This document shows, piece after piece, positions 4,600 to 39,675 of a DNA stretch of 64,000 nucleotides; within the stretch, counting starts at the first letter, position 1, and every line of letters starts with the position of its first letter. The position numbers and the translations under genes were made by a program. Origin of the DNA: Candidatus Aminicenantales bacterium (GTDB lineage Bacteria > Acidobacteriota > Aminicenantia > Aminicenantales > UBA8522). Where the stretch lies: contig JBAUIH010000209.1 of NCBI GenBank assembly GCA_049682755.1, positions 208-64,207 on the forward strand, given 5' to 3'. Below the pieces are notes generated by a model, which was not told the origin of the DNA, made no database searches, and worked only from the letters and a program-made list of their open reading frames with translations.

Positions 4600-4788
4600 G
4601 CCGTCTCCCCGACCCAAACGGTGACCGAAGAATATCAACTCGCGGGCGCTGAGTCAAATGAAAATCCCTGAAAAGATACTTCCTTTATAGAGGAATACGG
4701 GAAATTCTTAACGGAAATTGGGGAATCGCTGAGTGTCCGGTTCTGACCTATTATTCTGAATGATTAATGAAAAATGACGAAAAAGATA

Positions 4789-4825
4789 TCCTCTCCCCTG
4801 GCGGGAGAGGATGGAGGAGAGGGGG
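4789..4825 (+). repeat. 37-bp REP-like hairpin repeat, copy 2
   Basis: tcctctcccctggcgggagaggatggaggagaggggg. It is a direct repeat of 1465-1501, and the two copies bracket the kinase gene. Confidence 0.8.
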
Positions 4826-4863
4826 GAAGGGAGAAGGATTGAGGCTCTTGTAGGAGCGAGGTA

Positions 4864-7800: not shown

Positions 7801-8421
7801 CCCGTAGGCGAGGAGCGGCTCCCGGGGATCCCGGTCGGACTTGTATTGCCTGATGGCGTCCTCGACGGTCTGACCGGTAAGCGGATTCTTGAGCTCGGCG
7901 GTGAAAATCGGGATGCCGTTCAGGAAAAGGACCATGTCGAGAGTCTGAATGCTCTTTTCACTGTACCGGAGCTGACGGATTACGGAAAAGAGATTCGCCG
8001 CGTGAAGCCGCCTGATCTCCTCGTTTAGCCCGCTCGCCGGCCGGAAGAAGGCCAGCTTGAATTTGCAGCCCGAATCCTTGATCCCGTTCCGCAGCACATC
8101 CAGCGCGCCGCGCCGCCCGATCTCCCGCGATAGGCGTTTGAGGAATTGTTCTTTAGCCGAGGCGCCGTAAGGCTGCTTGAGCCTTTCCCATTCCTTCGGC
8201 TGCGTCGCGATGATAAAGTCGATGACGTCGCGCGGAATGAGGCATAGCGACTGGTCGTATTCTTCAGGCGGCCGCTTTCGATATCCTCCGGGAGGGGATT
8301 CTCCGTAAGGCGGCGCCGTCTCGCGCACACCGACCATCTCTCCAGCGCAGGCATCCGGCCCGTGCCGAAGCAGCCCGCATTCAATGGTTTTTTCAAAACT
8401 TCGCTCGGAGACTTCCGGCAT
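4864..8421 (-). CDS. hsdR: Type I restriction enzyme R subunit with extra C-terminal AlbA_2 (Schlafen-type) domain
   Basis: N-terminal PD-(D/E)xK nuclease (DMVLFLNGIPIFTAELK). SF2 helicase motifs (HSAGSGKS, VIVDEAHSSQSG, QTGFD). The last ~166 aa (KRGESKTLEFKS...AAFLNTAGGDLLIGVSD...YVRSGPGS) match the AlbA_2 pattern. Confidence 0.9.
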   Translation of the reverse strand: MPEVSERSFEKTIECGLLRHGPDACAGEMVGVRETAPPYGESPPGGYRKRPPEEYDQSLCLIPRDVIDFIIATQPKEWERLKQPYGASAKEQFLKRLSREIGRRGALDVLRNGIKDSGCKFKLAFFRPASGLNEEIRRLHAANLFSVIRQLRYSEKSIQTLDMVLFLNGIPIFTAELKNPLTGQTVEDAIRQYKSDRDPREPLLAYGRCLAHFAVDPDLVYVATELAGPRTRFLPFNQGKFGGAGNPPVPPTQKGYPTAYLWEKIWSRDSVLDLIRQFVHEIEEEDERGRKTGKRSLIFPRYQQLDAVRRLVAHARQYGAGESYLIQHSAGSGKSFTIAWLAHRLSTLHDNEDKRVFDSIVVVTDRRILDRQLQTTMRQFEQTLGVVENIDTTSRQLKQALESGKTIIVTTLQKFPVIVSEIGELPGHRFAVIVDEAHSSQSGESSKSLKAVLASGNLEEAEKEEAGAQTPEEELENTILAEMEKRGRLPNLSMFAFTATPKAKTLEIFGIKRTDGKFEPFHLYSMRQAIEEGFILDVLRNYTTYKAYWRLLKKIEDDPRYDKSKAEYLLKSFVELHPHAINEKVRIMVEHFAAQVQNEIGGRAKAMIVTRSRLHAVRYKLAADRYLREKGYPFKALVAFSGSVPDGGRAYTESGMNSAGKERTIGERQTAKEFGKPEYRFLICANKFQTGFDQPLLHTMYVDKKLGGVNAVQTLSRLNRIYPEKSGTLVLDFANEADDIQAAFQPYYETTLLSEATDPHLLYEIQSRLLAFPVFTDADVALFAKAYFDKKTTQDQLYAVLAPVSTRFAGISDEEQHDFRGQLTDYVRLYAFLAQVLTFSDADLEKLYVFARHLRRLVPADPDTLPREVQQNIDMESYRIQQTGSGAITLERKGEQLQPVMTKEHYGEAPEDLEPLSLIIAELNERFGLNLGPEHRVTLGQILAKLDGDAALDASARVNTRENIRLTFDHKVEDVIQEIVDSNFDLYKRITDDRAFGEALKDFLFDHYLRAHRQAEELIKRGESKTLEFKSTLRWNLKENRKDDKVITHAVLKTIAAFLNTAGGDLLIGVSDSGKVTGVEADQFDNDDEFMRHLAQVVRNGLGDRASTCIDPKTQVVQGKTVCLVTCQRSPEPVFLKWKQTEENPEGDFYVRSGPGSVKLSPESAAEYIRTRFPAGPGGPIKKAT

Positions 8422-9582
8422 TCAAATCTCCGTCCCTTGCCTGAGAATATCCAGGCATTTTTCATACGCGTACAATCTGTTTCTCTTCCGTCCCGTGACC
8501 TCCTTCACGATTCCGATTTTTTGAAGCGAATCAAGGACGCTGGTCACGGTAGGCGGTGAGATCTTCGTTTTGTCTGACAGGAATGGAATATTCGCGATGG
8601 GCCGGCCTTGAAGGACCTCGTGTATCCGAAGAGCGGAGCTGGCCTTTCGTCCAAGGTCGCCGATCTTTTTCCGGTCCTCCTCAGCGACTTCGTTCAAACG
8701 CCTGGCTGTCGTCACCGCTCCTTCGGCCATCTCCCGGACTCCGTCGACGAAAAAACGCAGCCACGTTTCCCAGTCCCCTTCCTGACGGACTTTCATCAGG
8801 AGATCGAAATATTGCGACCTGTTCTGTTTGAAATAAAGACTGAGATAAAGAAGCGGGTGCCGAAGGACCCCCTCATGGCAAAGGAGCAACGTAATCAGCA
8901 GGCGGCCTATCCGGCCGTTGCCATCGCTGAAGGGATGGATTGTCTCGAATTGCACATGGGATAGGGCAGCCTTGATCAGGATTGGGATTCTTTCGGGAAT
9001 ATCATGAAGGAATTTCTCAAGCGCGCTCATGCATTCGGCCACGCGGCCGGGTGGAGATGGGACATAAATGGCGTTGCCCGGCCGGGTTCCTCCGATCCAG
9101 TTCTGATCGCGGCGAAACTCGCCGGGATTCTTGTCGCTCCCGCGGCCTTTCGCCAGCAGAACTCCATGAACCTCACGAATCAGGCGGTTGGATAGGGGGA
9201 ATCCTTCCCTGAGCCTTTTTAAGCCATGGTTCATTGCCGAGACATAGTTTGAAACTTCCACGACATCGTCGAGCGGGACTCCAGGGGCCTCTTTTAGTTC
9301 GAAGAGCAAGAGATCGGACAGCGATGTCTGTGTCCCCTCGATTTGAGATGAAAGCACCGCCTCTTTGCGTATATACATGTATAGGAAAAGATCGATATCG
9401 GGCAGAAGAGTGGCAACGCTGTCGAGCCGCCCGAGAGAGAGAAGAGCCTGATCGATGGCATCCCGAAGCGAGAAATCGATAACGAGAGGAGGAATCGGCG
9501 GTAGGGGGCGGGGAACAAAGGCTCGGACGGTTTCCTCACCGGTTTGCCTGACGATGTATTCCCCTGTTAATCCTCGATTCAT
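8422..9582 (-). CDS. Fic/DOC family protein, class II (Fic_N + Fic + C-terminal wHTH; SoFic-like layout)
   Basis: Active-site motif HPFSDGNGRIGRLL. Intramolecular inhibitory motif SSQIEG (S-x3-E-G). C-terminal wHTH-like ISPPTVTSVLDSLQKIGIVKE. The stop TGA directly abuts the hsdR ATG. Confidence 0.9.
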   Translation of the reverse strand: MNRGLTGEYIVRQTGEETVRAFVPRPLPPIPPLVIDFSLRDAIDQALLSLGRLDSVATLLPDIDLFLYMYIRKEAVLSSQIEGTQTSLSDLLLFELKEAPGVPLDDVVEVSNYVSAMNHGLKRLREGFPLSNRLIREVHGVLLAKGRGSDKNPGEFRRDQNWIGGTRPGNAIYVPSPPGRVAECMSALEKFLHDIPERIPILIKAALSHVQFETIHPFSDGNGRIGRLLITLLLCHEGVLRHPLLYLSLYFKQNRSQYFDLLMKVRQEGDWETWLRFFVDGVREMAEGAVTTARRLNEVAEEDRKKIGDLGRKASSALRIHEVLQGRPIANIPFLSDKTKISPPTVTSVLDSLQKIGIVKEVTGRKRNRLYAYEKCLDILRQGTEI

Positions 9583-9598
9583 GGCTAATCTTTGCAGG

Positions 9599-9669
9599 TC
9601 CGGTCTAATTAAAGTTTCTTTAATTAGACCGGAGCTACTTAAAGGATAACGCCTTTTCCTTTAATAAGC
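9599..9669. promoter_or_regulatory. Operator-like module: 35-nt perfect palindrome plus TTATTAAAG-type half sites, 16 nt upstream of the fic ATG
   Basis: tccggtctaattaaag-ttt-ctttaattagaccgga (9599-9633), then cttaaaggataa and cctttaataagc. The module is collinear with the first ~65 bp of the 415-bp elements at 10481 and 13521. Confidence 0.5.
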
Positions 9670-9704
9670 AAGGGGATTTTAAATTGGTCTTTACCTTCCT
9701 TTTT

Positions 9705-10322
9705 TCATACACTCCAGCTGTATAACAAAGCCTCCAGATATGGTCTCATGACGTTCCAAACCCGGCATATCTTGGCATATTGATAGACCTCGTCGGAGGT
9801 GGCCTTCTTCTCACGAAGACATTCCCTGGCGGCTTCGATGGCGGCCTCAAGGCCGATACGATTTCGGAACTTGAAGCAGTCAGCGACGGTTTTCGCTGGG
9901 CTGTAGATCTTGACTGCGACTCCCTCTATCTGATGTTCATCGATCCCTTCGGAAAAGGACGGTCCGGAGAATCGAACGATTGACACCGGAGGATAGGAAA
10001 GGTGCGGTTGAGCGCTCCCCCTTCTGAGTGCCAGCCAGACCTTCCGGGGAAGTTGGGTGCCGATGTTATGATAACGCAGGGCGGAGGTCAAGCAGATGAC
10101 GCCCTTCGGAATTCGCTTTCCGATGATCGCAAAATTATGAAACTCGGTGATTTCCGAATCAGCCAGGACGTAGAGACCCCTTTCTGGACGAACAAGGAGT
10201 CCCTTGGTCACCAGCCTGCGGGCATACTCTGGATGAATATTCCGTTCAAGAAGATCCTTAATGCGGATTGTCCCCAGTTGTTTGGCCAGCTCGATGATGA
10301 CCTGCTCCGTGGATTTTTCCAT
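9705..10322 (-). CDS. AbiEi-like (type IV TA antitoxin family) wHTH protein, copy 1; no AbiEii partner
   Basis: ~205 aa, with RGLYVLAD, VICLTSALRYH and TVADCFKFRNRIG motifs typical of AbiEi_4/COG5340 proteins. I prefer the ATG at 10322 (the ORF track starts at TTG 10331). Confidence 0.75.
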   Translation of the reverse strand: MEKSTEQVIIELAKQLGTIRIKDLLERNIHPEYARRLVTKGLLVRPERGLYVLADSEITEFHNFAIIGKRIPKGVICLTSALRYHNIGTQLPRKVWLALRRGSAQPHLSYPPVSIVRFSGPSFSEGIDEHQIEGVAVKIYSPAKTVADCFKFRNRIGLEAAIEAARECLREKKATSDEVYQYAKICRVWNVMRPYLEALLYSWSV

Positions 10323-10329
10323 GTGTAAC

Positions 10330-10357
10330 AATATATATATATATCAATAAATGTCAA
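10330..10357 (-). promoter_or_regulatory. Sigma70-like promoter of abiEi-like copy 1 (TTGACA-N16-TATATT), near-leaderless
   Basis: The minus strand reads TTGACAtttattgatatatatatatattgttacacATG. The -10 ends 7 nt before the ATG, there is no SD, and an (AT)7 tract occupies the spacer and -10 region. Confidence 0.5.
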
Positions 10358-10480
10358 TACTTTTACACGTGATCGAAGTTTGGAAGAGCGCAGGCGAATT
10401 TGACAAATCCTCGGTAATCATATGCATTTACCTGGGAAATGCAAGTGCTCCTTCAGGATAAGTCGGGGCTTTTACTGGCG

Positions 10481-10895
10481 TTATTAAAGATACTTTAATA
10501 AGCCCACTGCTTATTAAGGGATAAAGGCTTATCCTTTAATAACGATTCTGGATAGAACTGCCATCACTTGCGTACAACTGATGGCAGTTTTATCCGGAGG
10601 TGTCCAATTTGCCCTCTTAACTTTGCGCATGCTGAACCCTGCTTATCGCCGGGGCGGAAAGCATTCGGCTATCAGACGCTCAGGACAAGGTCCCACTGCG
10701 ACCATGAAAATCGAACACTCAGTGATGGATTTTCATGGTATGATTCGACAGTTTTATGTTTCGATTTTAGCGTCGACCGCGACTGAAACATGGCCCCACA
10801 TCCAGCTTTCTCCTCATAAGCATACTTCCTAGGCCCCAACTTGTTACTTGTCAGAAGGAATGCGTTAGCCTAAAATTAAACTGCAGTTTGAGGGC
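10481..10895. repeat. 415-bp conserved non-coding element, copy 1
   Basis: Gapless alignment to 13521-13935. Perfectly conserved blocks include tatcctttaataacgattctggatagaa and ctgcgaccatgaaaatcgaacactc. There is a 12-bp-stem hairpin at 10701-10739. No conserved ORF is present. Confidence 0.8.
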
Positions 10896-11046
10896 ATATC
10901 TTAATGAATTATGCAAAGGAGCAATCTCCCCCCTATTTTGATTTTTGCACGGAGATACGCGATGCCTAAGCGTACGAATGAGTTCCAGCAACTGGTCATG
11001 AGAATGTATAAACAGATGGCGGGTCCCGGCGACGTTGAACCCGGCC

Positions 11047-12099
11047 TTAGGTTTTTTTGCCTGATCCGAGCCAGCCTTGTTCGGCAAGTCGTGTCCACGC
11101 AATATGAATGTGCTCAGGTTTGAACATTTTCTGCTTCCTCTCGTTCCATTTATGAACTGCTCGAACGGCTTCATTAGGATTCGAAACCGTGGTTTCCCCA
11201 TGAACCGCTATCCAATGCACCGACGAGAGAAGCTCCAATCCGTACGGAGTTTCAAACCCTTCAATCACCGTCGCGACCCGTTTTAACCTGTCGGCAGAAG
11301 CTTCGTTACCCGAAAGGGATTTGTCTGACTCTTTAATCGCCCCCGGCAAAAGCTCGATCTCGACATCAGGTTTCTGGGTGTCCCCGTATCCTCTGATAAA
11401 GTGTCCTTCCATAATCTCGAGAACTTTGTTCAGGTTGTGGGCATAGGGTCCAAATAGTCCGGCTTCATATCTCAATCGAAGGGGCTCTCCCGCTTCCTGC
11501 AGGAAGTATGCCATTTTCTGAACTTCAAGGAGGGTTAGGCGATAGGCCAATTGGGCATATTGATGGATTAGCCTGATGAGCAGCGCCCTGGCGATTGTCA
11601 TCCTTGGCCGCTTAGTGCGAACGGGCATAGCCCTGGCATCAGGCGTGCCAATGGGCTCAAATAGCATTACACGTGTGTTTGGCAAAGCAGCAAATGCTCC
11701 CTCTATAAGGGGCTTCACGTCTTTCCAGTTTAGCCCTCCAAGCCCGCATCCTAACGGAGGTAGAGCAACAGAAGAAATGCCGAGCTTTCTAATCTCTTCG
11801 ATAAGAGATCTTAATCCAATTCGAACATCTTCGATTTGTGACTTTGCCCTCCAATCGCGCTTAGTCGGGAAATTGACAATATATTTTGGATTGACCAGCG
11901 AACCGGTAGAGAAGACAAATACCTTCCCCGGCCTTATTCCGTTCGCCCGGCAGGCTCGTTCGTAAGCTTTAAAGTTATCGGGGAAGGCTTTCTTAAATTG
12001 AAGGGCTATGCCCTTGCCCATATATCCGACGCAATTGACTGTGTTTACTAATGCCTCCGCATCGGTTTCAATCAGATTCCCCCGAGTGATCTCGATCAT
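11047..12099 (-). CDS. darG: DarG antitoxin (macrodomain ADP-ribosyl hydrolase + C-terminal DarT-binding region)
   Basis: The N-terminal macro domain MIEITRGNLIETDAEALVNTVNCVGYMGKGIALQFKKAFP...PPLGCGLGG is followed by a ~190-aa C-terminal domain. The gene starts 13 nt after darT. Confidence 0.85.
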   Translation of the reverse strand: MIEITRGNLIETDAEALVNTVNCVGYMGKGIALQFKKAFPDNFKAYERACRANGIRPGKVFVFSTGSLVNPKYIVNFPTKRDWRAKSQIEDVRIGLRSLIEEIRKLGISSVALPPLGCGLGGLNWKDVKPLIEGAFAALPNTRVMLFEPIGTPDARAMPVRTKRPRMTIARALLIRLIHQYAQLAYRLTLLEVQKMAYFLQEAGEPLRLRYEAGLFGPYAHNLNKVLEIMEGHFIRGYGDTQKPDVEIELLPGAIKESDKSLSGNEASADRLKRVATVIEGFETPYGLELLSSVHWIAVHGETTVSNPNEAVRAVHKWNERKQKMFKPEHIHIAWTRLAEQGWLGSGKKT

Positions 12100-12112
12100 T
12101 TTGTTGCCCCGA

Positions 12113-12757
12113 CTAATAATACCATTCCGGTTTGATAATTACCATTGGGCGGAGCGATAAAGGGAAACTTCCCAGGATTCGCTCCACCGAGGATTTTATC
12201 CTTGTATTAATAACGGCAATTTTCTTGATAAATTGAAAATCGCATCGCCGATGTACCAAAAACTCAGCCTGTTTTCGGCGCTGCCGATCCATATCGTCTA
12301 CTGTATCATTCCAAGCAGTGGCATAAATTGTATTCCAATCTAATCTTCCAAGATCGGCAAGGTCGTCATACCAACTTGTATAGAAAGCGATGCCGTGCCC
12401 ATCAGAAAAAACAAAGGGGGTGCCGCCTTGATGAATGCTTTGGGCTGTAGAAATTAGATAGATCAAAGGCTCCTGGCCTCCCTGATAATCGGCAATCCTG
12501 CCCGTATGGAGTTGATATAGCATCGGAGATCGTGGGCCGAAATAAAATGAAACGTAATCATGGATTACGCCCCCTGACCCACACGGAATTGTTGTTACCT
12601 GCCTGAGTTGCTGTATTTCTATGTTATGGATTGCCCTATAGAGTAGTCTATTTTTTGGCATGTAGTTGGGCGCATGGAGCGCTCTTCTACGTAAGCATAC
12701 GGACAGATTGTCAACGTGTATGAAACGGAAAATTGGGGTCGGGATAGGAACAGTCAC
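12113..12757 (-). CDS. darT: DarT (DUF4433) ssDNA thymidine ADP-ribosyltransferase toxin
   Basis: IFRFIHVDNL..., YVSFYFGPRSPMLY and RRKQAEFLVH motifs are characteristic of DUF4433/DarT. GTG start with GAGG upstream. Confidence 0.85.
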   Translation of the reverse strand: MTVPIPTPIFRFIHVDNLSVCLRRRALHAPNYMPKNRLLYRAIHNIEIQQLRQVTTIPCGSGGVIHDYVSFYFGPRSPMLYQLHTGRIADYQGGQEPLIYLISTAQSIHQGGTPFVFSDGHGIAFYTSWYDDLADLGRLDWNTIYATAWNDTVDDMDRQRRKQAEFLVHRRCDFQFIKKIAVINTRIKSSVERILGSFPLSLRPMVIIKPEWYY

Positions 12758-12849
12758 TTCATTGCCTCATGTCCTATGTTGATTCAGCCTGTGCAGGGAG
12801 CAGAAATCAAACCGGACAGAATGGGCCATGTTCGTCGGATTCCGAACGC

Positions 12850-13458
12850 TCATTGAATGGCCTCAAGGTAAGGGAGCATGACCTGTTTCATCCGCAGGAG
12901 CGCGGCATAGTCCAGGATCTCGGAAATCGTGCAGACGCCTCGACGCTGACTAAGCCGCAGGGCTTCGACAGCGATATCGATTCCGATCCTGTTGCGGAAC
13001 TTGAAACAATCCACGATGGTTCGGGCTGGAGCGTAGATACGGACCTTGAATCCATCGACATCGTGAATTTCGATCCCAAGCTTATGAATTTCGCGAGAAA
13101 ATCTGTATATCCTCATAGGAGGAAAATCCAGGCGTGGGGTTTTTGTCCCGCGAGGAAGGGCCATGTCGACCCAATGGGGAACTTGAGTTGTTATTCCGTG
13201 AAAAGACAGTGAAGAAATAAGACAAATAACCGCGCCCGGAACTCGGGCGGCTACCACTGAGAGGTCGGGATTCCCCAGGTCAGGTAAGTCGGCCAGCCGA
13301 TACAGGCCGCGGCTCAGAGGAACGATCCGGCCGCTTGCGCGCAGCGAGTAGAGACTTCTCGGGTGTATGCCCTCGGCAATGGCCTGGGATGTCCGGAGAG
13401 TACCCCCTTGCTCTCGGAACATCTTTTCTGCCTCTTCTTCACGTGTCCGGTATCGCAT
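12850..13458 (-). CDS. AbiEi-like wHTH protein, copy 2; no AbiEii partner
   Basis: Same family as 9705-10322 (RGLYRLAD, VICLISSLSFH, TIVDCFKFRNRIG). About 43% aa identity to copy 1 by hand alignment (76/175). Confidence 0.75.
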   Translation of the reverse strand: MRYRTREEEAEKMFREQGGTLRTSQAIAEGIHPRSLYSLRASGRIVPLSRGLYRLADLPDLGNPDLSVVAARVPGAVICLISSLSFHGITTQVPHWVDMALPRGTKTPRLDFPPMRIYRFSREIHKLGIEIHDVDGFKVRIYAPARTIVDCFKFRNRIGIDIAVEALRLSQRRGVCTISEILDYAALLRMKQVMLPYLEAIQ

Positions 13459-13466
13459 AATGGATA

Positions 13467-13496
13467 ATTATGCCATCACATATATATAATTGTCAA
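13467..13496 (-). promoter_or_regulatory. Sigma70-like promoter of abiEi-like copy 2 (TTGACA-N18-CATAAT), near-leaderless
   Basis: The minus strand reads TTGACAattatatatatgtgatggCATAATtatccattATG. The -10 ends 8 nt before the ATG, and the spacer again contains a TA-repeat tract. Confidence 0.45.
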
Positions 13497-13520
13497 CCTT
13501 TTTATCCATTTCAAATTAAC

Positions 13521-13935
13521 CAATTAAAGAAACTTTAATAAGCCAGCTGCTTATTAAAGGATGCCGACCTATCCTTTAATAACGATTCTGGATAGAAATG
13601 CCATCACTTATGCATAAGTGTAGCCATTCTTATCCGGAAGCGTCGGAGTTGGGCTTTTAGCTTTGCTAATGCTGCACCCGGGTTACCGCCAGAAGGGCGA
13701 GTATTTGGCCATCGGACGCTCAGGATAATGTCTCTCTGCGACCATGAAAATCGAACACTCCGCGATGGATTTTCATGGTATTGACCAAATATCTTAGGTG
13801 TCGATTTTAGCGCTAGCCGCGACTGAAACGTGGCCGAGCATACACCTTTCTCTTCTCAATTGGATATTCAGGCCGGCGACTTGTTACTTGCCATATAACC
13901 TGGGTCATCCTAAAATGATACTGCAGTATGAGGGC
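13521..13935. repeat. 415-bp conserved non-coding element, copy 2
   Basis: See 10481-10895. The hairpin lies at 13741-13779, at the identical offset (+220). The operator-like module 13521-13583 lies only ~27 bp from the abiEi-2 -35 box. Confidence 0.8.
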
Positions 13936-14125
13936 CTACCGGATGGAATCGTCCGAAATATAGAGCCCCCAAGGATAGGAAAACCGGACCGGCAATGAAT
14001 TCCCTCCTATTAACGAGCGGTACGGAAGTGGCCTTGGCGCGGATAATATGGATAACAAATTATTAGGGCTCCATTATCTCGGTATTACTGACTGCTGCAA
14101 TCAGCTGTGATAGGATTAATTCAAA

Positions 14126-14815
14126 ATGAGCAGGCAGCTTACAGCAGAAGAGGCCAAACGAAGCTTTATCGAATCCATGGGCGATCCTCTGGGAAGGCTA
14201 TTTTATGCATTATGGCAGGAATTGGCAGGGCTTTATGCGAAGTGGGAGGAATACCTCGTGCTTTACGGAACAAAAGAATCACGAATAAATCTTCTGAACA
14301 AAGCCGCTCCCCTCTTCTTTCGAATAATCCAAGATGTTCTTTGGGAGGACATAATTCTCCACATTGCGCGGTTAACTGATCCTCCAAAATCCTCTGGAAA
14401 GGCCACCCTCACAATTAGAAGGCTTCCCGATTTGGTAAAGGATGGCAATACAGCTCAGGCTTTAAGGGGACTTATCAATATCGCGATACAGTCATCAGAA
14501 TTTTGTCGCGATTGCCGGAATCGGTATATCGCGCATAGAGACCTCAACCTTGCTCTTGAGAAAGAGATTGTTCCCTTGAAGCCCGCTAGTAGAAAAAAAA
14601 TCAAAGAAGCTCTCAATTCCATTGCCGAAGTGCTTAACGCGGTTTCGCAACATTATACAGATTCGGAGATGACATTTGATATTGGTGAAGATCCCGAAGG
14701 AGCGGTTTCGCTCCTATATGTAATCGATGATGGATTGAAAGCAGGAGAAGAACGTAAAGAACGTATAAGTAGCGGTAAATATCGGAAGGACGATTTTAGT
14801 CCTCGCGATTTGTAG
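14126..14815 (+). CDS. HEPN-domain protein, AbiU2-like (putative abortive-infection RNase)
   Basis: LLNKAAPLFFRIIQDVLWEDIILHIARLTDP, then CRNRYIAHRD (R-x5-H, the HEPN Rx4-6H motif). This pattern matches what I recall for the HEPN_AbiU2 family. Confidence 0.55.
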   Translation: MSRQLTAEEAKRSFIESMGDPLGRLFYALWQELAGLYAKWEEYLVLYGTKESRINLLNKAAPLFFRIIQDVLWEDIILHIARLTDPPKSSGKATLTIRRLPDLVKDGNTAQALRGLINIAIQSSEFCRDCRNRYIAHRDLNLALEKEIVPLKPASRKKIKEALNSIAEVLNAVSQHYTDSEMTFDIGEDPEGAVSLLYVIDDGLKAGEERKERISSGKYRKDDFSPRDL

Positions 14816-14995
14816 CTATCACCTTAATAATTAAATTAGCAGACCAGCCGCAGATTTCGTTTTGAAGCCAAGTTTCGAAGATTGAAACGGGGCGTCATTA
14901 AGGAGAAGCGCACGACACCTGCGCGCATTCCGAGCGCGCAGGTGGCTAGGGAGTTCAGTGCGTACGTCGCTTGGAGTTTATAAAGGGAGACTTAG

Positions 14996-15850
14996 ATGGG
15001 GCATCATTATGTACCTCGAAAATATCTGAGAGGTTTTGCGGATCCGAACAATCCTGGAAAGATTTGGATGTATGATAAGCATTCCCATCGGTTCACGCAT
15101 GCTAGCATTATATCCGTTGCTCAAGAGGCGAGTTACTATAGCGAGGATGCAGAGAGGCAGCTCAGCGAGTTTGTCGAGGGTCCTGCCCATAAGGTTCTTA
15201 AGAAGCTTCGATGCGGGGATTCTATCAATGATAACGAGCGTATGAGGCTTGCGCTATATGTAGCGACAATGTTGATGAGGGTGCCGCGGCGACGCAGAAA
15301 AGCTTTCGAGATGCTTCCCAGCGTGCGCGAGGATGTAATCAACCGAGCTACTCTTATTATTACTCAATGGGCTAAAACCAGCATGGTCGCCCCCGCACTT
15401 AAGCTTAAGAGATTTGCTGAACTAGAGCGAGCACGCGAAAAGCTGCGAGCCCAGCCACCGGAAGAGGTTGTAAAGAAGATTCGGGCTCCTTGGCCAAGTG
15501 AGAAAGTATTAGCGTGCGTTATCGGTATGACTTGGCGGATCGCGTCGGCCGGTGACGCCGGGTTTTTTCTCACCTCGGATAATCCAGCATTTTTTTTCGA
15601 AGCCTATGGACTCGGCAGGCCCGAATCAGAGCTGACATTTCCTCTTGCATCTGAACTGGCACTGCTAGGTAGTTGGCAGGGAGCGCCTAATGAAACAATT
15701 TTTGTCAAAGCGAAGCCATCGCTCATGAAGGAAGTCAATCGTCGAATCGCAAGCGGCGCTGAGCGCTTTGTTTTCTATCGCGGCCGTGAAGACTGGGTGG
15801 CTCAGCTTGCGGAAAGGCGGAACCTCCGCCTTAATCGCATTATTTGGTAA
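14996..15850 (+). CDS. DUF4238 family protein
   Basis: The N-terminal HHYVPRKYLRGF is the DUF4238 signature, and FFLTSDNP occurs later. Coordinates are taken from the ORF track. Confidence 0.65.
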   Translation: MGHHYVPRKYLRGFADPNNPGKIWMYDKHSHRFTHASIISVAQEASYYSEDAERQLSEFVEGPAHKVLKKLRCGDSINDNERMRLALYVATMLMRVPRRRRKAFEMLPSVREDVINRATLIITQWAKTSMVAPALKLKRFAELERAREKLRAQPPEEVVKKIRAPWPSEKVLACVIGMTWRIASAGDAGFFLTSDNPAFFFEAYGLGRPESELTFPLASELALLGSWQGAPNETIFVKAKPSLMKEVNRRIASGAERFVFYRGREDWVAQLAERRNLRLNRIIW

Positions 15851-16254
15851 ATGGAGTGCTGGCTAATATTATCCGCTTCTCGCCCACCACGCGTTAAAAG
15901 AAAAGCCAAGTTTCTTAGAAAAGAGGATAAATTATCTCCTCAAGGAAGTGAGCGCCCCAATTTATCAAGATAACTAGCGTTGCTGGTACTTCTAACGGGG
16001 GAGGCGAAAAGCTGCGGTAATTTATCCCAAATCAGGGCGATTATAAAAAGTAAAATTCTAGAGCCCTCTACACGAGAGTTTGCGTTCTGACATATATAGT
16101 TCTAAGATAGTATGGAAGAGGAGGGTTATTATAACAATGCAGTTTTATGAAAAACGGTTTTCCAACTTAGGGGTCAGTCCATTGGACTAAAAAGCGTCCC
16201 GGCTATTTCTATTAGTGCAGGACGCAAGCATCCCATAGACCGGAGGCATATACA

Positions 16255-16449
16255 ATGACAGCAGCACCCAAAATACAAGGATTACCTGACGTACCCACCC
16301 TGGTGTTCGAGACGTTTCTTGAGGCACTTCAGCAGGCGGGGGCGTCAGATGAGTTGATCATTCGGCTTCGCAAGACTCTTACGGAGGAAAAGAAATTCAC
16401 CGAGCGCGCCTTAAAGGATACTGTCCTCCCGGAGGAGTCACTAACATGA
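16255..16449 (+). CDS. Small hypothetical protein (64 aa), translationally coupled to the downstream ATPase
   Basis: GGAGG lies 8 nt upstream of the ATG. The stop overlaps the ATPase start (ATGA at 16446-16449). Helical, acidic composition; I recognise no family. Confidence 0.5.
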   Translation: MTAAPKIQGLPDVPTLVFETFLEALQQAGASDELIIRLRKTLTEEKKFTERALKDTVLPEESLT

Positions 16450-18902
16450 TTAGGGTCGAATCTATCACAATCAGTGAGTTTCGCGGAATCCGAAACTTGA
16501 CGCTGGATCTTAACGAAAAGAGCTTTGCTGTTTGTGGCCCAAACGGCACGGGAAAGAGCGGGGTGGTTGACGCCTTGGAGTTCGCGCTGACCGGAAATGT
16601 ATCCCGGCTCTCTGGAGAGGGCAGAGGTGAAGTTTCCCTGAAACAGCACGGACCCCACGTGGACAGACGGAATGATCCTGACAGGGCCCGCGTGAGATTA
16701 AAGATCACAATCCCAAGCCTGAATAAGTCCGTCACTATCGAGCGCAGCTTAAAGAATCCGGGGGCTGCCCAAGTGGCGCCGGCCGAGCCCTTAGTATTTG
16801 ACGTACTTCGTCAGGTTGAGGCGCATCCCGAGATTGTGCTTTCGCGCAGGGAGTTGATACGCTACGTTCTTGCTACGCCCGGCAAACGCGCCGAGGAAGT
16901 TCAGGCGCTGCTCCACCTTGACCAAGTCGAACAGGTCAGAGGTGTTCTGCAGAAAATCGCGAATGCCTGCGAGAAGCAACTAGGTCCTCTGAGCGCAGCG
17001 GCCAAAGAAGCCGGCGATAATTTGTTGCGTGCACTGGGGATTTCCGAATTGGTAAAGGAAAAGGTGCTGGCCGCGACAAACACCCAGCGGGCGAGTCTTG
17101 GTCTCCCTCCACTGACAGACCTGACTGAAACAACATCCCTCAAGGACGGGATGGCGACACCGGCACCGGCTCAGCCTCGCCGCATCTCCAAGGTCCAAGC
17201 CCTCACTGATATTCGAGCCACCCGTGAGGTTCTCTCAGAAATTGCCAGCGAGGAAACAAGAAACCTTGTTACTGAAGTGATATCTGATCTCAATACGCTT
17301 GCTGCGGATCCAGCAATTGTTGCAGGCTTGAAACGAGAAGCTTTCTTTGCCACCGGGATGGAACTGGCTGAGACAGGAGCCTGTCCTCTTTGCGATACAC
17401 CATGGGACCTTATTGAACTAAAGAAATACATTCAGGCCAAGATCGATTATATGAAAGAGCTATCGCGTAAGCGCGGAGCGGCAGAAAAAAAGATTGCTCC
17501 GCTTATCGTAACACTGCGCAAGGTGAAGGCTGGAATGGAAACACTGATCGGTTACGGCGAGTTCGCAACTCCGACGTTGGTTATGAAAACTGCCCGAGCC
17601 TATACTAGCGATTGCGCAAATGCGGTCGATAGGCTAACGGCCTTACTTCCACTTGATGAAGCGACCAAGGTGCTCAGGAATGTGCCGATCATCCAGCAAA
17701 CTGTTCTAGACTCCATAAGAGAGCTTGAACAAGTGGTTGTTGCGCTCCCTGAGCCAACAAAGCTGGACGCAGCAAGGGATTGGCTTGCCGTCGCGCAAGA
17801 GAGACTTGAGAAATGGCGCGATGTCATGCGGAAAAATAAGACCGCCAGGGAACAAGCCCAGAGAACACGACAAGTATCTGATATTTATGCTGCCTCCAGC
17901 GATAAAGTTCTCGCAGGGATCTATGCAAGTGTGGAAAAGGACTTTTCTTTGCTTTACAGCTTCCTTAACCGCGAGGACGAAGAAAAGTTTAATGCTAAAC
18001 TAATTCCGTCATTAGGAAAGCTCGGCTTCGATGTTGACTTTTACGGACGTGGCTTTTTCCCGCCCGGTGCTTATCACAGTGAAGGCCATCAAGATAGCAT
18101 GGGCGTATGTTTATACCTAGCATTGATGAAACACCTCCAAGGCGAGAACTTTACTTTGGCTGTGCTTGACGACGTCCTTATGTCGGTGGACACGGGCCAT
18201 CGGCGGGAGGTCTGTTCCCTATTAAAGAAGGAATTTCCGAACACTCAATTCGTAATTACCACACATGACCCCATCTGGCTGCGTCACCTGAAAACCGAAG
18301 GTATTATTGGAGGAAAATCATCGGTGCATTTCAGAAAGTGGAGCATTAACCAGGGGCCGACACGATGGGATATGCGGGATGTATGGAGTGAGATCGAGGA
18401 ATCCATAGAGGAAAACGACATACGTGCAGCCGCCTCACTCCTCAGGTATTACCTTGAGTATGAGTCGGCTGAACTATGTCAGAGGTTGCGCGCCCTAGTT
18501 GAGTTTCGTGGCGATGCACAATATCAACTTGGCGATCTTCTTCCCCCAGCGATCATTCGGATGCGCAATCTTTTTCGTCAAGGGAAGGCTGCTGCCAATT
18601 CCTGGAACCAGAAGGAGATAATCGAACAGCTTGCCACACGCGAGGCCGAATTCGCTAAGGTGGCGACGGCCTCAAGAGTTGAGCAATGGCAAATGAACGC
18701 ATCGATACACTATAACTCCTGGGACAACCTATGCAAAGAGGACTTTGTACCTGTAGCGAAAGCGTTCCGGGACCTCCTCCAAGGATATATGTGCCGGGAT
18801 TGTGGAGAGTATCTCCGTGTCTCCCCAGAACGTAATGCAGGCGAGTCGATCCGTTGCGAATGCGGGAAAACTACGTTTAACCTCCTTGGAAAAAGCGGGT
18901 AG
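16446..18902 (+). CDS. SMC/Rad50-like ABC ATPase with CxxC zinc hook and C-terminal R-x3-E...H + 4-Cys ribbon tail (RloC-like)
   Basis: Walker A GPNGTGKS (aa 31-38). Signature-like YHSEGHQDS (543-551). Walker B LAVLDDVLMSVD (571-582). ITTHD (604-608). CPLC at aa 313-316, midway through the helical insert. Tail motifs LLRYYLEYE, NASIHYNSW and CRDC-x17-CEC. Confidence 0.85.
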   Translation: MIRVESITISEFRGIRNLTLDLNEKSFAVCGPNGTGKSGVVDALEFALTGNVSRLSGEGRGEVSLKQHGPHVDRRNDPDRARVRLKITIPSLNKSVTIERSLKNPGAAQVAPAEPLVFDVLRQVEAHPEIVLSRRELIRYVLATPGKRAEEVQALLHLDQVEQVRGVLQKIANACEKQLGPLSAAAKEAGDNLLRALGISELVKEKVLAATNTQRASLGLPPLTDLTETTSLKDGMATPAPAQPRRISKVQALTDIRATREVLSEIASEETRNLVTEVISDLNTLAADPAIVAGLKREAFFATGMELAETGACPLCDTPWDLIELKKYIQAKIDYMKELSRKRGAAEKKIAPLIVTLRKVKAGMETLIGYGEFATPTLVMKTARAYTSDCANAVDRLTALLPLDEATKVLRNVPIIQQTVLDSIRELEQVVVALPEPTKLDAARDWLAVAQERLEKWRDVMRKNKTAREQAQRTRQVSDIYAASSDKVLAGIYASVEKDFSLLYSFLNREDEEKFNAKLIPSLGKLGFDVDFYGRGFFPPGAYHSEGHQDSMGVCLYLALMKHLQGENFTLAVLDDVLMSVDTGHRREVCSLLKKEFPNTQFVITTHDPIWLRHLKTEGIIGGKSSVHFRKWSINQGPTRWDMRDVWSEIEESIEENDIRAAASLLRYYLEYESAELCQRLRALVEFRGDAQYQLGDLLPPAIIRMRNLFRQGKAAANSWNQKEIIEQLATREAEFAKVATASRVEQWQMNASIHYNSWDNLCKEDFVPVAKAFRDLLQGYMCRDCGEYLRVSPERNAGESIRCECGKTTFNLLGKSG

Positions 18903-19048
18903 TCGAGGAAAGTCGGCGACCTAAAAATCTTGCTGGCTGACGGGACGCCCCCTATGGGCTATATGGCTTATCCATGTGATGAAGCCGGAACTATTATTCC
19001 CTATTAATAACTCAGTTAGCAGGGCAAATCATCCCAATACGAAAACTT

Positions 19049-19705
19049 TTATTCCTGCTCTACGAGTTCGCAATAATCCGCTGCCATTTCAGGTATAATC
19101 TCCTCAAGAATGTCGCAAAATAATCCTGATAATTCGGTTAGCTTTTTCGCTAGGATCTTAAATTTATCTACATATGATAAATCCTCACCTTTTACTAAGC
19201 CCACAATAAATCGAAGATTCAGGCTATCGGCCAACAGAAATCGCATATCCTTTACTTGTTCAGTATTCCCTGCCAAGAAGATCATGTCTTCATTCTCACG
19301 AATGCAATCATCAATAAACTCAGCCAATTCATGAGTGATGACTTGCTTGTCGAAATGAAAAGCAACTTTCCTGCGAATATTGTGTAATATTTCATTAATA
19401 AATGAATTATCTCTATCTGCGAGCTTTTCAATTTTCTCAATGTTTTTTTTGTACGATTCCAAATATTTCAGGCTCTCCCCTAAGGTATTAAACTTTTTTA
19501 TTCCTTCATAGAGCACGGCGGCATGATTTATAACCAGATTAAGCTGAAGATTTGTGTCGAAATCTCCCCTTTCACTTAGCAGTGCATAAATTACTTTGTT
19601 ATACTGGATTGCGCTTAATATCCTACATAGTTGGATCGATTCAAGAAAACGTGGCTCCGTTTTTAATAATGGCAAGGATTCTTTTTTTGCTCGCAGCCGT
19701 ATCAT
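19049..19705 (-). CDS. Hypothetical protein with HEPN-like Rx4-6H motif (possible divergent AbiU2-like)
   Basis: Strong SD (GGGAGGAcaaaATG). This is the most AT-rich gene in the window. IRRKVAFHFD (R-x4/5-H) and LNLVINHAAVLYEGI parallel INLLNKAAPLFFRII / RNRYIAHRD in 14126-14815. Confidence 0.55.
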   Translation of the reverse strand: MIRLRAKKESLPLLKTEPRFLESIQLCRILSAIQYNKVIYALLSERGDFDTNLQLNLVINHAAVLYEGIKKFNTLGESLKYLESYKKNIEKIEKLADRDNSFINEILHNIRRKVAFHFDKQVITHELAEFIDDCIRENEDMIFLAGNTEQVKDMRFLLADSLNLRFIVGLVKGEDLSYVDKFKILAKKLTELSGLFCDILEEIIPEMAADYCELVEQE

Positions 19706-19781
19706 TTTGTCCTCCCGGAGATTGACCAGAATGCACTTATTTTTTGATGCGCAATATTTAATTTATTAAAATCCTTTTGGT

Positions 19782-21146
19782 CTAGGAAAGATCACGGACG
19801 TCGATCTTTCCCGTCACAGCTGCAGAAACGATTGCCGTGCGGTATTCCTTGAGGCGGTCGATTGCTTCCCGAATCGTTGACACGAGTATAGCGATCCTTG
19901 TCGTTTCTCTATTAAGAAAAGATATTATTGTCCCTTGTTGTGCGGCTGACGGCAGAGGTATTAAGGTATCGGCGATCAACTCGATTTCTAAGCTCTCGAC
20001 TGTTGCGCCCTCTTTTCTCCAGGCGATTAAGAGAGGAGATTGCATGCCTGAAATAAAGTAAGCCAAGTATTCCGGGACAACTGCGGCATCAGCTTGCAAA
20101 GCCTTAAGGTCTTGATTTAGCGTGATCTCAGAACCCGATAATCCGACGGGAATACTATGATTAAGGATTCCAGAGCGAACCACGATTAGCACGGTGCCAG
20201 CGGCAATAATCCTTGTCGCACTCCTGGCGACAGCTTCTTCAGTAATCTTATCGATAGTATCCGAGACGATCCATCTCTTCATGTCCTTCGGTGAAACCCA
20301 TGGAATTTCACCTTGCCAATAGTCTAAATTATCTTTGCTCGGAGTACCACCTCCCAAGAAACGAACGATATGTTTCAGCCTTATCATCCGCCAGCCAGCA
20401 GGGATCTTCCCCAGCCATTCGATGCCGGAGTCTTTCATGGGGACGTTTGGGTCGAGGCCTTTGGTGACGGCTTGGGTGATGAGGGCAGTGCGCTTTTCCT
20501 GATGGAGTTCGATCAATCGCTCCTTTTTCGCTATGAGCGCATCGATCTTCGCCGCCTGGCCATTAAGGAAGAATACGATGGCCTTTTGTTCTTCTATTGG
20601 GGGTAGCAGTACAGGGAGGGATTCTACCTTTTCAGCGGTAAAATGACTGATCGTGGCTCTACTGCAGAGCATATCTATGTAGCCTGAGTGTTTGAGTGCA
20701 TAGAGCCAATAGTATAGGTAATCTGTAAGGTCTATTCCTTTTGCGCGGACCCGATTGATTGCATTTTGATAGTAGCATGGCATAATTTCGCCGCGCCAGA
20801 TTGCCGATCGACCTACGTCTCCACCTTCGCTTATAAGAAGATCTCCGGCGCAGAGCGCTAACCCGTCCTTTTCGCTTGAAGAGATCCACATGTGCTTCAC
20901 ATCTTCTATGCTTACTCCATTCCAGGCAAGATTCGCAGCACGGAGGTAGGGCTCTAGCGAGTCATCGGACCTTAGAGGTTCATTTTGAAGCATTTTTCCT
21001 AAGTTGACGTCAAAACTCCTTTTTAAAGGAGCCATGGTCCAGCCGCTCGGGATCTCTGTTAACCACTCGGCGCCGGAATCTTTGTATTCTGGGTACGGTT
21101 TAAACCTTCGGCCGGTAATTTTGGGAAAAGATGGTGCTCCCCCCAT
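19782..21146 (-). CDS. hsdS: Type I R-M specificity subunit
   Basis: Two TRD-like halves are separated by the conserved helical spacer LPPIEEQKAIVFFLNGQAAKIDALIAKKERLIELHQEKRTALITQAVTKG. A second copy of the spacer lies at the C-terminus (LPLPSAAQQGTIISFLNRETTRI...AAVTGKIDV). Confidence 0.9.
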   Translation of the reverse strand: MGGAPSFPKITGRRFKPYPEYKDSGAEWLTEIPSGWTMAPLKRSFDVNLGKMLQNEPLRSDDSLEPYLRAANLAWNGVSIEDVKHMWISSSEKDGLALCAGDLLISEGGDVGRSAIWRGEIMPCYYQNAINRVRAKGIDLTDYLYYWLYALKHSGYIDMLCSRATISHFTAEKVESLPVLLPPIEEQKAIVFFLNGQAAKIDALIAKKERLIELHQEKRTALITQAVTKGLDPNVPMKDSGIEWLGKIPAGWRMIRLKHIVRFLGGGTPSKDNLDYWQGEIPWVSPKDMKRWIVSDTIDKITEEAVARSATRIIAAGTVLIVVRSGILNHSIPVGLSGSEITLNQDLKALQADAAVVPEYLAYFISGMQSPLLIAWRKEGATVESLEIELIADTLIPLPSAAQQGTIISFLNRETTRIAILVSTIREAIDRLKEYRTAIVSAAVTGKIDVRDLS

Positions 21147-21147
21147 G

Positions 21148-21519
21148 CTATATGAGTATCCTCTTAATTGAACCTTCGCCCATGTCTATGACGATTGAGC
21201 AGAAACGCACGTTGAAAAATTGCTTGAATGTCTTAAACGAGAGGTCCTTCGGCCATAGACTGGAATCGATACACCAGTCGTTAAGTTCAATCTCAAATAT
21301 TTTCCTGAAGTTTTTTTCGAGCCAAGGATCCGGATTGCTATCGATTTCGGGTATCAGGTATGCAGACGAGTCTTCCAGGAGCTCGTCCAACGTCAGTGTT
21401 GGGTATTCGTCGGGGAATTTCCTCGCCCATTCCAGAAAAGCGGTCGTCGGTTCAATTAGGAGGACAAACCTGTTTATCGTTGGCAGGTCATGGATGGACG
21501 TTTCAAGCTGAGAATTCAT
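21148..21519 (-). CDS. Hypothetical 123-aa protein wedged between hsdM and hsdS
   Basis: The ATG at 21519 lies 35 nt after the hsdM stop. Its TAG stop ends 1 nt before the hsdS ATG. Sequence MNSQLETSIHDLPTINRFVLLIEP...WPKDLSFKTFKQFFNV; I recognise no family. The longer ORF-track version (to 21822) overlaps hsdM and is rejected. Confidence 0.6.
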   Translation of the reverse strand: MNSQLETSIHDLPTINRFVLLIEPTTAFLEWARKFPDEYPTLTLDELLEDSSAYLIPEIDSNPDPWLEKNFRKIFEIELNDWCIDSSLWPKDLSFKTFKQFFNVRFCSIVIDMGEGSIKRILI

Positions 21520-21554
21520 GGCGTCAATCCCTGGGGCACCTTTAGCCTTTCTGT

Positions 21555-23657: not shown

Positions 23658-23688
23658 GATTCAAGCTCCGTTGGCCGGAATTCTATGA

Positions 23689-38125: not shown

Positions 38126-38234
38126 AGAATTTCTCCGTTTGCTTTTCTTGTGAATTATAGTCAGGCTCATCTCGTCTTGTCAATGAAAAGGCAAATATGA
38201 ATAATAGAGTCTATCGTTCATTCAAGGAGTCCCG

Positions 38235-39397: not shown

Positions 39398-39408
39398 AAA
39401 GGGGACGA

Positions 39409-39639: not shown

Positions 39640-39675
39640 TTCAATTTTGCCTCAAAAACAAGGTCTGCCCGAAGA

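Follow-up and report, generated by a model that had tools for sequence, protein, structure and literature searches.

The 64,000-nt window analyzed here (positions 208 to 64,207 of contig JBAUIH010000209.1, assembly GCA_049682755.1, Candidatus Aminicenantales bacterium) contains a type I restriction–modification (R-M) operon with a tract of predicted toxin and defense genes between hsdS and hsdR. The genes hsdM (21555-23657), orf123 (21148-21519), hsdS (19782-21146), and hsdR (4864-8421) are all uninterrupted and lie on the minus strand, as determined from a map of the open reading frames (ORFs) and profile searches. The hsdS stop codon and the hsdR start codon are separated by 11,361 bp, in agreement with the 11.4 kb given in an initial annotation of this DNA, and all of the genes named in that annotation were recovered. 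In the direction of minus-strand transcription the order is hsdM, orf123, hsdS, and orf218, followed by a plus-strand block and then by AbiEi#2, darT, darG, AbiEi#1, fic, and hsdR. The plus-strand block consists of an AbiU2-type HEPN gene, a DUF4238 gene, orf64, and the gene for an 818-residue ATPase. It is highly probable that the segment is a mosaic defense island that occupies the hsdS-hsdR slot of an intact type I R-M operon and that includes an exchangeable hsdS and orf123.

The R-M subunits HsdR, HsdM, and HsdS are covered at full length by Pfam and PADLOC models and their ORFs are intact, as expected for a type I R-M system with predicted restriction activity. HsdM (700 residues; HsdM_N and N6_Mtase; PADLOC MTase_I, 1.6e-274) and HsdR (1185 residues; Pfam HSDR_N, ResIII, SWI2_SNF2, T1R_D3-like, and SLFN_AlbA_2; PADLOC REase_I, 2e-38) are encoded at the two edges of the frame. 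The specificity subunit HsdS contains 454 residues (Methylase_S, 8e-24; PADLOC Specificity_I, 1.5e-110) and is encoded by low-GC DNA. The product of orf123 is acidic with a pI of 4.5; in the NCBI annotation orf123 extends to 21558 (136 residues), and this longer start overlaps the hsdM stop codon.

The embedded genes form the cassettes AbiEi-Fic (followed by HsdR), AbiEi-DarT-DarG, AbiU2, DUF4238, orf64 with the ATPase, and orf218. The stop codon of fic (8422-9582, minus strand) abuts the hsdR start codon. Its 386-residue product is a SoFic-like, class II AMP-transferase (Fic_N, 2e-26; Fic, 1e-19) with the catalytic motif HPFSDGNGRIGR and the inhibitory motif SSQIEG in the translation. Residues 18-381 match positions 5-359 of the 361-position PADLOC SoFic model (1.5e-121), which assigns the protein to SoFic in the PADLOC/DefenseFinder sense. 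The score against the NCBIfam SoFic equivalog NF046030 is 153.5 bits relative to a cutoff of 550. From these profile scores Fic is a predicted member of the SoFic family and not an orthologue of the Shewanella enzyme.

Two AbiEi-like winged helix-turn-helix proteins are encoded on the minus strand. AbiEi#1 (9705-10331; 208 residues; AbiEi_4, 1.7e-12; PADLOC AbiEi, 5.8e-80, residues 7-202 on a 198-position model) and AbiEi#2 (12850-13458; 202 residues; PADLOC AbiEi, 2e-67) are 43% identical to one another, and both match PADLOC AbiEi models from end to end. The gaps downstream of these genes are 122 nt (to fic) and 92 nt (to darT), respectively. No AbiEii domain was found in any ORF of the segment using Pfam and PADLOC profiles; with two AbiEi proteins and AbiEii absent, the locus does not contain an AbiE type IV toxin–antitoxin system. 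The toxin DarT, a predicted single-stranded DNA (ssDNA) ADP-ribosyltransferase (12113-12757, minus strand; 214 residues; Pfam DarT, 7.5e-55; PADLOC DarT, 3e-60), and the macrodomain antitoxin DarG (11047-12099, minus strand; 350 residues; Macro, 2.8e-26; PADLOC DarG, 1.5e-131, residues 1-341) are encoded on the same strand 13 nt apart and constitute a DarTG system by profile.

The HEPN_AbiU2-family protein (14126-14815, plus strand) contains 229 residues and matches PF18734 (2.1e-33); no match was found in PADLOC, NCBIfam, or PHROG. The DUF4238 protein (14996-15850, plus strand) contains 284 residues, of which 3-262 match PF14022 (2.9e-30, 106 bits with a cutoff of 27). It is assigned to the single-protein system Rst_DUF4238 by its domain, with its likeness to the P2-hotspot protein itself unmeasured. 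In E. coli, protection against T7 by a single DUF4238 protein has been reported (PMC9122126). The profile searches thus placed the matched genes of the segment in defense and toxin families rather than in housekeeping families.

The DNA from ~9.6 to ~21.5 kb had been described as more AT-rich than hsdR, hsdM, and the flanks. The GC content of 9583-21519 is 0.478, relative to 0.572 for the remainder of the window, and the 12-kb interval of lowest GC in the entire 64 kb begins at 9.5 kb. The GC content at third codon positions (GC3) is 0.73-0.76 in the flanking kinase gene, hsdR (0.755), hsdM (0.759), and Memo(-AMMECR1), relative to 0.36-0.61 in all of the embedded genes. The minimum is found in orf218 (19049-19705; GC 0.364), which had been singled out before as the most AT-rich gene. 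The least deviant of the embedded genes are fic (GC 0.54, GC3 0.605) and AbiEi#1 (GC3 0.61). Unlike hsdM and hsdR, hsdS (GC3 0.51) and orf123 (GC3 0.58) fall within the low-GC block. The island interior is compositionally foreign and the hsd frame is host-like. A flat GC and codon-usage profile had been set beforehand as the result that would count against the accretion of cassettes in one R-M operon; the profile is not flat, and the proposal survives.

Two neighboring regions were considered as additional defense loci and rejected. The second low-GC patch (38000-42000; 0.49-0.51) carries genes for saccharopine dehydrogenase and aldehyde:ferredoxin oxidoreductase and is metabolic. The Ser/Thr kinase with TPR repeats (1507-4638) provided many matches to PADLOC PD-T4-6 models (best 4e-101), which probably reflect a generic kinase domain rather than defense. 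The kinase gene was left out of the island because it is a conserved flank gene that is also present, at 81% identity, in the closely related locus L011 described below.

Related loci were collected by scanning one genome per GTDB species with HsdM, which provided 80 loci from many phyla with HsdM proteins 72-92% identical to that of the window; individual loci are referred to by number. Locus L011, from a Candidatus Aminicenantes metagenome-assembled genome (MAG), occupies the same chromosomal site, with identities of 82, 92, 56, 52, 93, and 81% for Memo, hsdM, orf123, hsdS, hsdR, and the kinase, respectively. The hsdS-hsdR slot of L011 is 1.4 kb long and contains a single AAA_14/DUF4143 ATPase gene that is unrelated to the cassettes of the window. 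This locus is the emptier version of the site that the initial annotation had proposed to look for among relatives. The DNA identity to L011 is 82-93% through hsdR, stops exactly at the start codon (8421), and is random beyond. It returns weakly in the conserved parts of hsdS and amounts to 81-96% again precisely at the end of hsdM, at ~21.55 kb. The variable tract is therefore 8422-21550, and it coincides with the compositional block. At the DNA level the region for the first target-recognition domain (TRD1) of hsdS is 36-41% identical to L011, relative to 76-78% for the central conserved region, and the TRDs of the window are unrelated to those of close relatives. In the comparison with L011, hsdM (0.81-0.96; 21600-23700) and hsdR (0.82-0.93; 4800-8400) are closer than the adjacent housekeeping Memo-AMMECR1 gene (0.73-0.81; 23800-24400); the sequences suggest that the hsd frame itself was exchanged or is unusually constrained.

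An old origin of the entire island at this site, followed by its deletion from relatives such as L011, was considered as an alternative. This explanation is very unlikely. The slot of L011 carries a different gene and no scar, and the GC3 discontinuity is strong and has not been ameliorated. Locus L007 matches positions 13274-15938 of the window at 90.6% and positions 16038-19866 at 94.2%, which includes AbiU2, DUF4238, orf64, the ATPase, and orf218. The adjoining orf123/hsdM DNA of L007 is just 80.6% identical to the window and its hsdS TRDs are unrelated, the opposite of what is expected for vertical co-descent. The reverse is found with L008. Its HsdR is 95% identical at the protein level and its hsdR DNA is 89.5% identical, yet the filling of the slot is different: AbiEii-AbiEi, a second AbiEi (90% to AbiEi#1), orf64-ATPase (80%), and orf218 (83%) are present, without Fic, DarTG, AbiU2, or DUF4238. 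In some loci the interior is closer than the frame and in others the frame is closer than the interior, and exchange by recombination is therefore indicated rather than vertical descent.

Locus L001, from another metagenome, lies beside queA/ruvAB. The gene order is hsdM-orf126-hsdS-DarT-DarG-HEPN-[AbiU2, ATPase, orf64]-Fic-AbiEi-AbiEii-hsdR, which is nearly the same inventory as in the window in a different order and chromosomal context, with an ATPase that is 76% identical and an HsdR that is 88% identical. An island of comparable size and content in so distant a lineage is an argument for an old island, for such assemblies can persist. It also means that part of the accretion is an exchange of preassembled blocks between hsd frames, since L001 carries a very similar island at a different chromosomal site. 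The variable gene content of L011, L008, and L007, in addition to the uneven GC and GC3, thus supports the accretion of several cassettes within one R-M operon. AbiEii, absent from the window, is present in L001 and L008. The region 1-2832 of L001 contains a second, distinct type I R-M module (hsdM, DUF6036, a gene of no assigned family, and a short hsdS) back to back with the hsdR of the nested island. Residues 1023-1160 of the HsdR of the window (4864-5400) form a C-terminal Schlafen/AlbA_2 domain (Pfam, 5.5e-20), and this fusion is kept in the distant loci L001 (2912-6547) and L094 (7832-11365).

Both hsdS and hsdR are visible in 47 of the loci. In 20 of these the two genes are separated by no more than 39 bp, in 23 by 0.85-1.7 kb, and in the remainder by at most 3.8 kb. 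Not more than one gene occupies the slot in 43 of these 47 loci, which also argues against an ancestral island, and the one-gene fillings are mostly Fic. Relative to these loci, in which the slot is mostly empty or occupied by one gene, the filling in the window is unusually large. In a pool of 120 slot ORFs, AbiEii is the most common Pfam family (41); next are GmrSD, DUF4411 with M78 peptidase, Mrr, AAA_21/AAA_15 ATPases, and PIN. The gap between hsdM and hsdS is typically 1.6-1.8 kb and contains AbiEi in 64 of the 80 loci. The gene order AbiEi-DarT-DarG is also found in L039, and AbiEi-Fic-hsdR is also found in L015. Fic before hsdR and AbiEi after hsdM belong to the usual inventory of this hsd family and are not exotic arrivals.

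Habitual residence would also be expected if the toxins were functionally integrated with their host system as in the PrrC model. They would then be guarded by the R-M complex and would fire when a phage anti-restriction protein disables it, with nesting selected for stoichiometric co-inheritance and cross-talk with HsdR/HsdM. Fic is found immediately before hsdR in 18 of the 47 loci, across phyla, with its stop codon abutting the hsdR start codon here; AbiEi, with or without AbiEii, is situated between hsdM and hsdS in the majority of loci, and orf123 is translationally wedged between the same two genes. PrrC is almost exclusive to type I R-M loci (bioRxiv 10.1101/2024.01.29.577857), and RloC has been proposed to sense the state of the R-M system (PMC2610378). 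The orf64-ATPase pair, orf218, DarTG, and DUF4238, on the other hand, are all found outside of R-M loci, and the filling of the slot differs between nearly identical hsd frames. Functional integration is regarded as improbable, though less so than an ancestral island.

The ~430-nt regions upstream of the two AbiEi genes are non-coding control regions (copy 1, 10480-10909; copy 2, 13520-13949). They constitute a direct repeat (10483-10909 and 13523-13949) with 78% identity at a distance of 3,040 nt. Copy 2 separates AbiEi#2 from the divergently oriented AbiU2-DUF4238-orf64-ATPase block. Each region opens with a nested-palindrome block, and a third, operator-like copy of this block is found at 9605-9667 between the AbiEi#1 stop codon and the fic start codon. 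The palindrome of copy 1 is perfect, is 32 bp in length, and reads TTATTAAGGGATAA-N4-TTATCCTTTAATAA. Eleven copies from seven loci keep TTATTAAAGGATAA-N4-TTATCCTTTAATAA without compensatory substitutions. The core motif of the palindrome has three sites (six strand-wise matches) in the window, relative to an expectation of 0 from 100 shuffles. Several hsd islands contain the element at cassette junctions, with copies in L001 (8075-8193), L007 (240-683), L008 (4808-5059 and 6107-6224), L013 (15514-15635), L094 (5951-6072 and 6984-7098), and L098 (185-253).

Small genes were rejected as an explanation for these repeats, as all six frames are equally poorly conserved. A structured RNA was rejected as well; there is no match in Rfam, and the palindrome is conserved without covariation. 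Since it is conserved without compensatory substitutions, the palindrome is read as a DNA operator and not as an RNA helix. Directly upstream of AbiEi#1 (10357-10330) and AbiEi#2 (13496-13467) are the two sigma70-like sites with the best match in the region (11/12). A conserved, outward-facing promoter-like site is found at the far end of each ~430-nt element; in copy 1, which also contains a hairpin at 10701-10739, this site is at 10848-10876. On the basis of these sequence features the ~430-nt element is read as a putative DNA operator and divergent promoter region, and it may also serve as a recombination substrate. Beyond the outward promoter-like site of copy 1, just short unconserved ORFs (10911-11123 and 10851-11201) lead into the 3' end of darG. 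It looks as if an insertion or duplication of the AbiEi#2-DarTG unit replaced the cargo that copy 1 once drove.

The AbiE system of S. agalactiae is autoregulated, with a strong promoter and inverted repeats upstream. Both AbiEi genes of the window likewise have a strong predicted promoter and inverted repeats upstream; they differ from AbiE in that the AbiEii nucleotidyltransferase is absent from the segment and the downstream genes are fic and darT-darG. The AbiEi orphans are most likely repressors predicted to bind the 32-bp palindrome before themselves and before fic-hsdR. In a divergent regulator-cargo arrangement, they would repress themselves, DarTG, Fic-HsdR, and probably the plus-strand block, and each cassette would thereby have its own promoter. 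Such promoters are needed because four genes point against the operon. Because of these four oppositely oriented genes hsdR cannot be read from the hsdM promoter, which fits with hsdR being driven from the Fic/AbiEi#1 region. An operator-like palindrome before fic-hsdR would also suit functional integration with the R-M system, and the direct repeats of the control element would permit the deletions required if the island were ancestral.

The segment could, alternatively, be a discrete mobile element (a transposon, an integrative island, or an integron-like array) that was inserted by site-specific recombination. The ~120-nt palindrome-rich elements at the cassette junctions of several loci are superficially attC-like, and the ATPase pair elsewhere is often near integrases, type IV secretion system (T4SS) genes, and RepC. 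The palindrome adjoins promoters, however, and is operator-like. As the initial annotation had observed, no integrase or transposase lies at the borders, and no integrase, transposase, or other recombinase domain was detected in any ORF of the segment using profile searches. The sole tRNA of the window is at 30363, and a repeat search at 8422 and at 19781/21519 found no terminal inverted or direct repeats. With neither a recombinase nor a tRNA or att-site border, the segment does not qualify as an integrative mobile element or an integron, and its breakpoints are the gene ends of hsdR and hsdM. Insertion of such an element is extremely unlikely. A site-specific recombinase is not needed for a mosaic island, as hsdM/hsdR and the control element would serve as homology arms.

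The initial annotation had stated that at least three units match no described system. This was substantiated for orf64 with the ATPase, orf218, and orf123 using Pfam, PADLOC, NCBIfam, and further searches. The orf64 gene (16255-16449, plus strand) encodes a small acidic partner and overlaps the start of the ATPase gene (16446-18902, plus strand) by 4 nt; no family match was found for orf64 in the Pfam, PADLOC, or NCBIfam libraries. The 818-residue protein is an SMC/Rad50-like ABC ATPase (SMC_N and AAA_23), with residues 4-609 on positions 2-199 of the 220-position SMC_N model. An insert of ~400 residues with a CPxC motif separates the two halves of the head, and the C-terminal domain consists of a helical bundle and a zinc ribbon. 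The Walker A motif, C313/P314/C316, the HSEGHQD signature, DD575-576, and TTHD605-608 are at least 97% conserved in 99 homologues (29-62% identity), as are R667, E671, W748, N751, H755, W759, and C783/786/804/806 of the C-terminal region.

A word-index search with the ATPase provided 1,402 matches, nearly all with 814-822 residues. A profile search with the C-terminal domain gave at least 868 clusters at 50% identity; as all 868 share one architecture of ~818 residues, no informative domain fusion was found. A small ORF on the same strand ends within 25 nt of the ATPase start in 65 of 69 metagenome loci, and the small partners share the conserved helical motif VFEKFL...RLRKTLLED...ALK.AV. The orf64-ATPase pair is present in 80 metagenome loci, about five of them in this hsd family, and across many phyla. 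Elsewhere its neighbors are integrases, DNA methyltransferases, restriction enzymes, TrwB, RepC, and RecT, and the pair is also present on plasmids from cultured Rhizobium, Mesorhizobium, Sphingomonas, and Phaeobacter. A search of phage genomes found no homologue of the ATPase. The AbiU2 gene adjoins the pair in L001-3, L007, and L098. In L007 (3074-5529), the closest relative of the interior, the ATPase (95% identical protein) is split into ORFs of 724 and 113 residues; this is either a frameshift (decay) or a short-read assembly error.

The ATPase was compared with RloC, which has an ABC head, a CX2C hook in the insert, and a C-terminal helical domain with R-x3-E...H, all of which are recognizable here. 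The Walker A, signature, Walker B, and H-loop motifs and C313-P-x-C316 are present at the sequence level, and the coiled coil is presumed. In the C-terminal domain R667-x3-E671 is near-invariant and H755 follows 83 residues on; the Glu-to-His distance in RloC is 36-52 residues (PMC2610378). The ATPase also has an additional C-terminal zinc ribbon and an obligatory 64-residue partner, both of which RloC lacks. No RloC or PrrC model is among the best 25 of the 89 PADLOC families listed for the whole ATPase, nor was one found for the C-terminal domain at E ≤ 10. With no match to an RloC/PrrC model and a triad spacing outside of the published range, the identification of the ATPase as RloC was rejected; by analogy the ATPase may work like RloC, and it is not shown to be one. 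Membership in Lamassu was not supported, since the match to LmuB is partial (whole protein 2.1e-16, best stretch residues 2-107; middle region 7.7e-7), there is no LmuA-like gene, and the partner, of 64 residues, has no family. The AlphaFold2 (AF2) model of the C-terminal domain has a pLDDT of 77 and no match in the PDB with E < 0.5.

In the proposed mechanism the hook-linked ATPase heads would sense foreign or broken DNA, and sensing would unleash the C-terminal R-x3-E...N-x3-H helical domain and zinc ribbon as a nuclease. The combined proposal that orf64 and the ATPase form a new, widespread RloC/Rad50-like anti-phage or anti-plasmid system, and that the AbiEi orphans regulate the island including hsdR, is tentative and on balance doubtful.

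The orf218 gene (19049-19705, minus strand; WBC70_08975) and orf123 (WBC70_08985) are both annotated as hypothetical. The product of orf218 has no assigned family. Its own family contains 30 clusters, in which R111-x5-H117 is invariant in 29 sequences and D119 is also invariant. The AF2 model is all-alpha with a pLDDT of 88, and no match with E < 0.5 was found in the PDB or BFVD. There is no HEPN match in Pfam or PADLOC, and hhalign links orf218 neither to the AbiU2 protein nor to the C-terminal domain of the ATPase. Of the earlier assignments of a "zinc hook" to the ATPase and a "HEPN motif" to orf218, the motifs themselves stand, C313-P-x-C316 and R111-x5-H117 being invariant, and no fold was demonstrated. 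A classification of orf218 as a HEPN protein is at most tentative; the motif favors it, and no family, fold, or hhalign match was found.

As a third part of the ATPase module orf218 was rejected, because it is found without the ATPase in L091, L093, and L094, and the ATPase is mostly found without orf218. In L094 it follows hsdS on its own, and in L093 it is part of another R-M/TIR island. Since orf218 stands alone elsewhere, it is an independent single-gene cassette. The homologue P0146, 46% identical, is from a MAG of Candidatus Hodarchaeota (an Asgard archaeon), and the family thus crosses domains. For orf123 no family was found in any library searched. Its relatives form 36 clusters, all hypothetical, and it occupies the same position between hsdM and hsdS in L001-3, L007, L011, L013, and L097. 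Its occurrence is limited to some members of this hsd family, in which it lies at the junction of hsdM and hsdS.

The hsd frame is conserved at this chromosomal site, the interior differs among close relatives, and the cassettes each occur independently elsewhere. In the mosaic island that is favored here, cassettes would enter and leave by homologous recombination, with the conserved hsdM and hsdR genes and the shared inter-cassette control element as homology arms. Immunity would be layered, with EcoKI-type restriction as the first line and toxin or abortive-infection modules behind it. DarT would ADP-ribosylate ssDNA, Fic would AMPylate a target, and the HEPN proteins presumably cleave RNA. 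The ATPase would act as a Rad50/RloC-like nucleic acid sensor with a C-terminal effector, and the two AbiEi proteins would have lost their AbiEii toxin partner.

Several points weigh against this reading. No recombination event was seen directly, and whether cassettes were gained here or lost from L011 is judged from composition and the survey of the family. The related loci are MAGs and metagenome contigs, in which misassembly at repeats is possible, and the survey covers flanks of 10 kb, so that larger islands may be hidden. The anti-phage roles of the genes and the binding of AbiEi to the palindrome are predictions. As reported by Payne et al. (bioRxiv 10.1101/2024.01.29.577857), 96.7% of embedded genes have the orientation of their host system, and four genes here do not; because these four are antisense, simple co-regulation with the operon is inapplicable.

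The view of type I hsd loci as landing pads has ample precedent (PMC12255303, PMC11411939, bioRxiv 10.1101/2024.01.29.577857), and the arrangement itself is not new, because defense genes nested in type I R-M loci, and in the hsdS-hsdR interval in particular, have been published. The nesting of toxins in type I hsd operons, where they form a second line of defense, goes back to PrrC/EcoprrI and the rlo genes (rloA-H, Campylobacter jejuni), including RloC (PMC2610378), and TgvAB is nested in the type I R-M locus of VPI-2 in Vibrio cholerae (PMC11411939). In enteropathogenic E. coli (EPEC) E2348/69, the RptR-T1RM-DarTG2-M48 island carries DarTG2 between hsdS and hsdR in a slot called a potential recombination hotspot (PMC12255303). 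DarT-DarG is in the same position in both islands. In the EPEC island the small repressor RptR binds a series of short palindromes in the promoter, relative to putative AbiEi-type regulators and a different, 32-bp palindrome here. The window contains at least six cassettes (11.4 kb) rather than one and no RptR or M48 gene, four of its genes are reversed, and it is known from sequence alone. A small protein and an AAA-like ATPase, both of unknown function, are reported as a pair in the same slot in four genomes (PMC12255303).

Embedding in type I R-M loci is common, and more than half of the embedded genes are of unknown function ("guilt-by-embedding"; bioRxiv 10.1101/2024.01.29.577857). The island described here is multi-cassette and partly antisense, in contrast to the predominantly co-oriented genes of that survey. 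No match to the PDC/HEC models of PADLOC-DB 2.0.0 was obtained for orf64, the C-terminal domain of the ATPase, orf218, orf123, AbiU2, or DUF4238. What is new here is the set of uncharacterized cassettes, together with the putative regulon of the AbiEi proteins and the palindrome.

The locus clearly illustrates, in nature, how immunity genes are exchanged at the hsdS-hsdR slot; a nearly empty allele and reshuffled versions of the filling accompany it, and it supports the logic of guilt-by-embedding in barely sampled phyla. As a source of candidates it offers a large, sharply conserved, and unnamed family of a small ORF with an RloC-like ATPase, which has homologues on plasmids of culturable bacteria. 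It also offers orf218 and orf123, which represent small families that match no known family or fold, and a regulatory hypothesis for Fic-HsdR in the form of AbiEi orphans acting on a palindrome. If the ATPase pair is a defense system, it would be a widespread addition to the ABC-ATPase immune superfamily.

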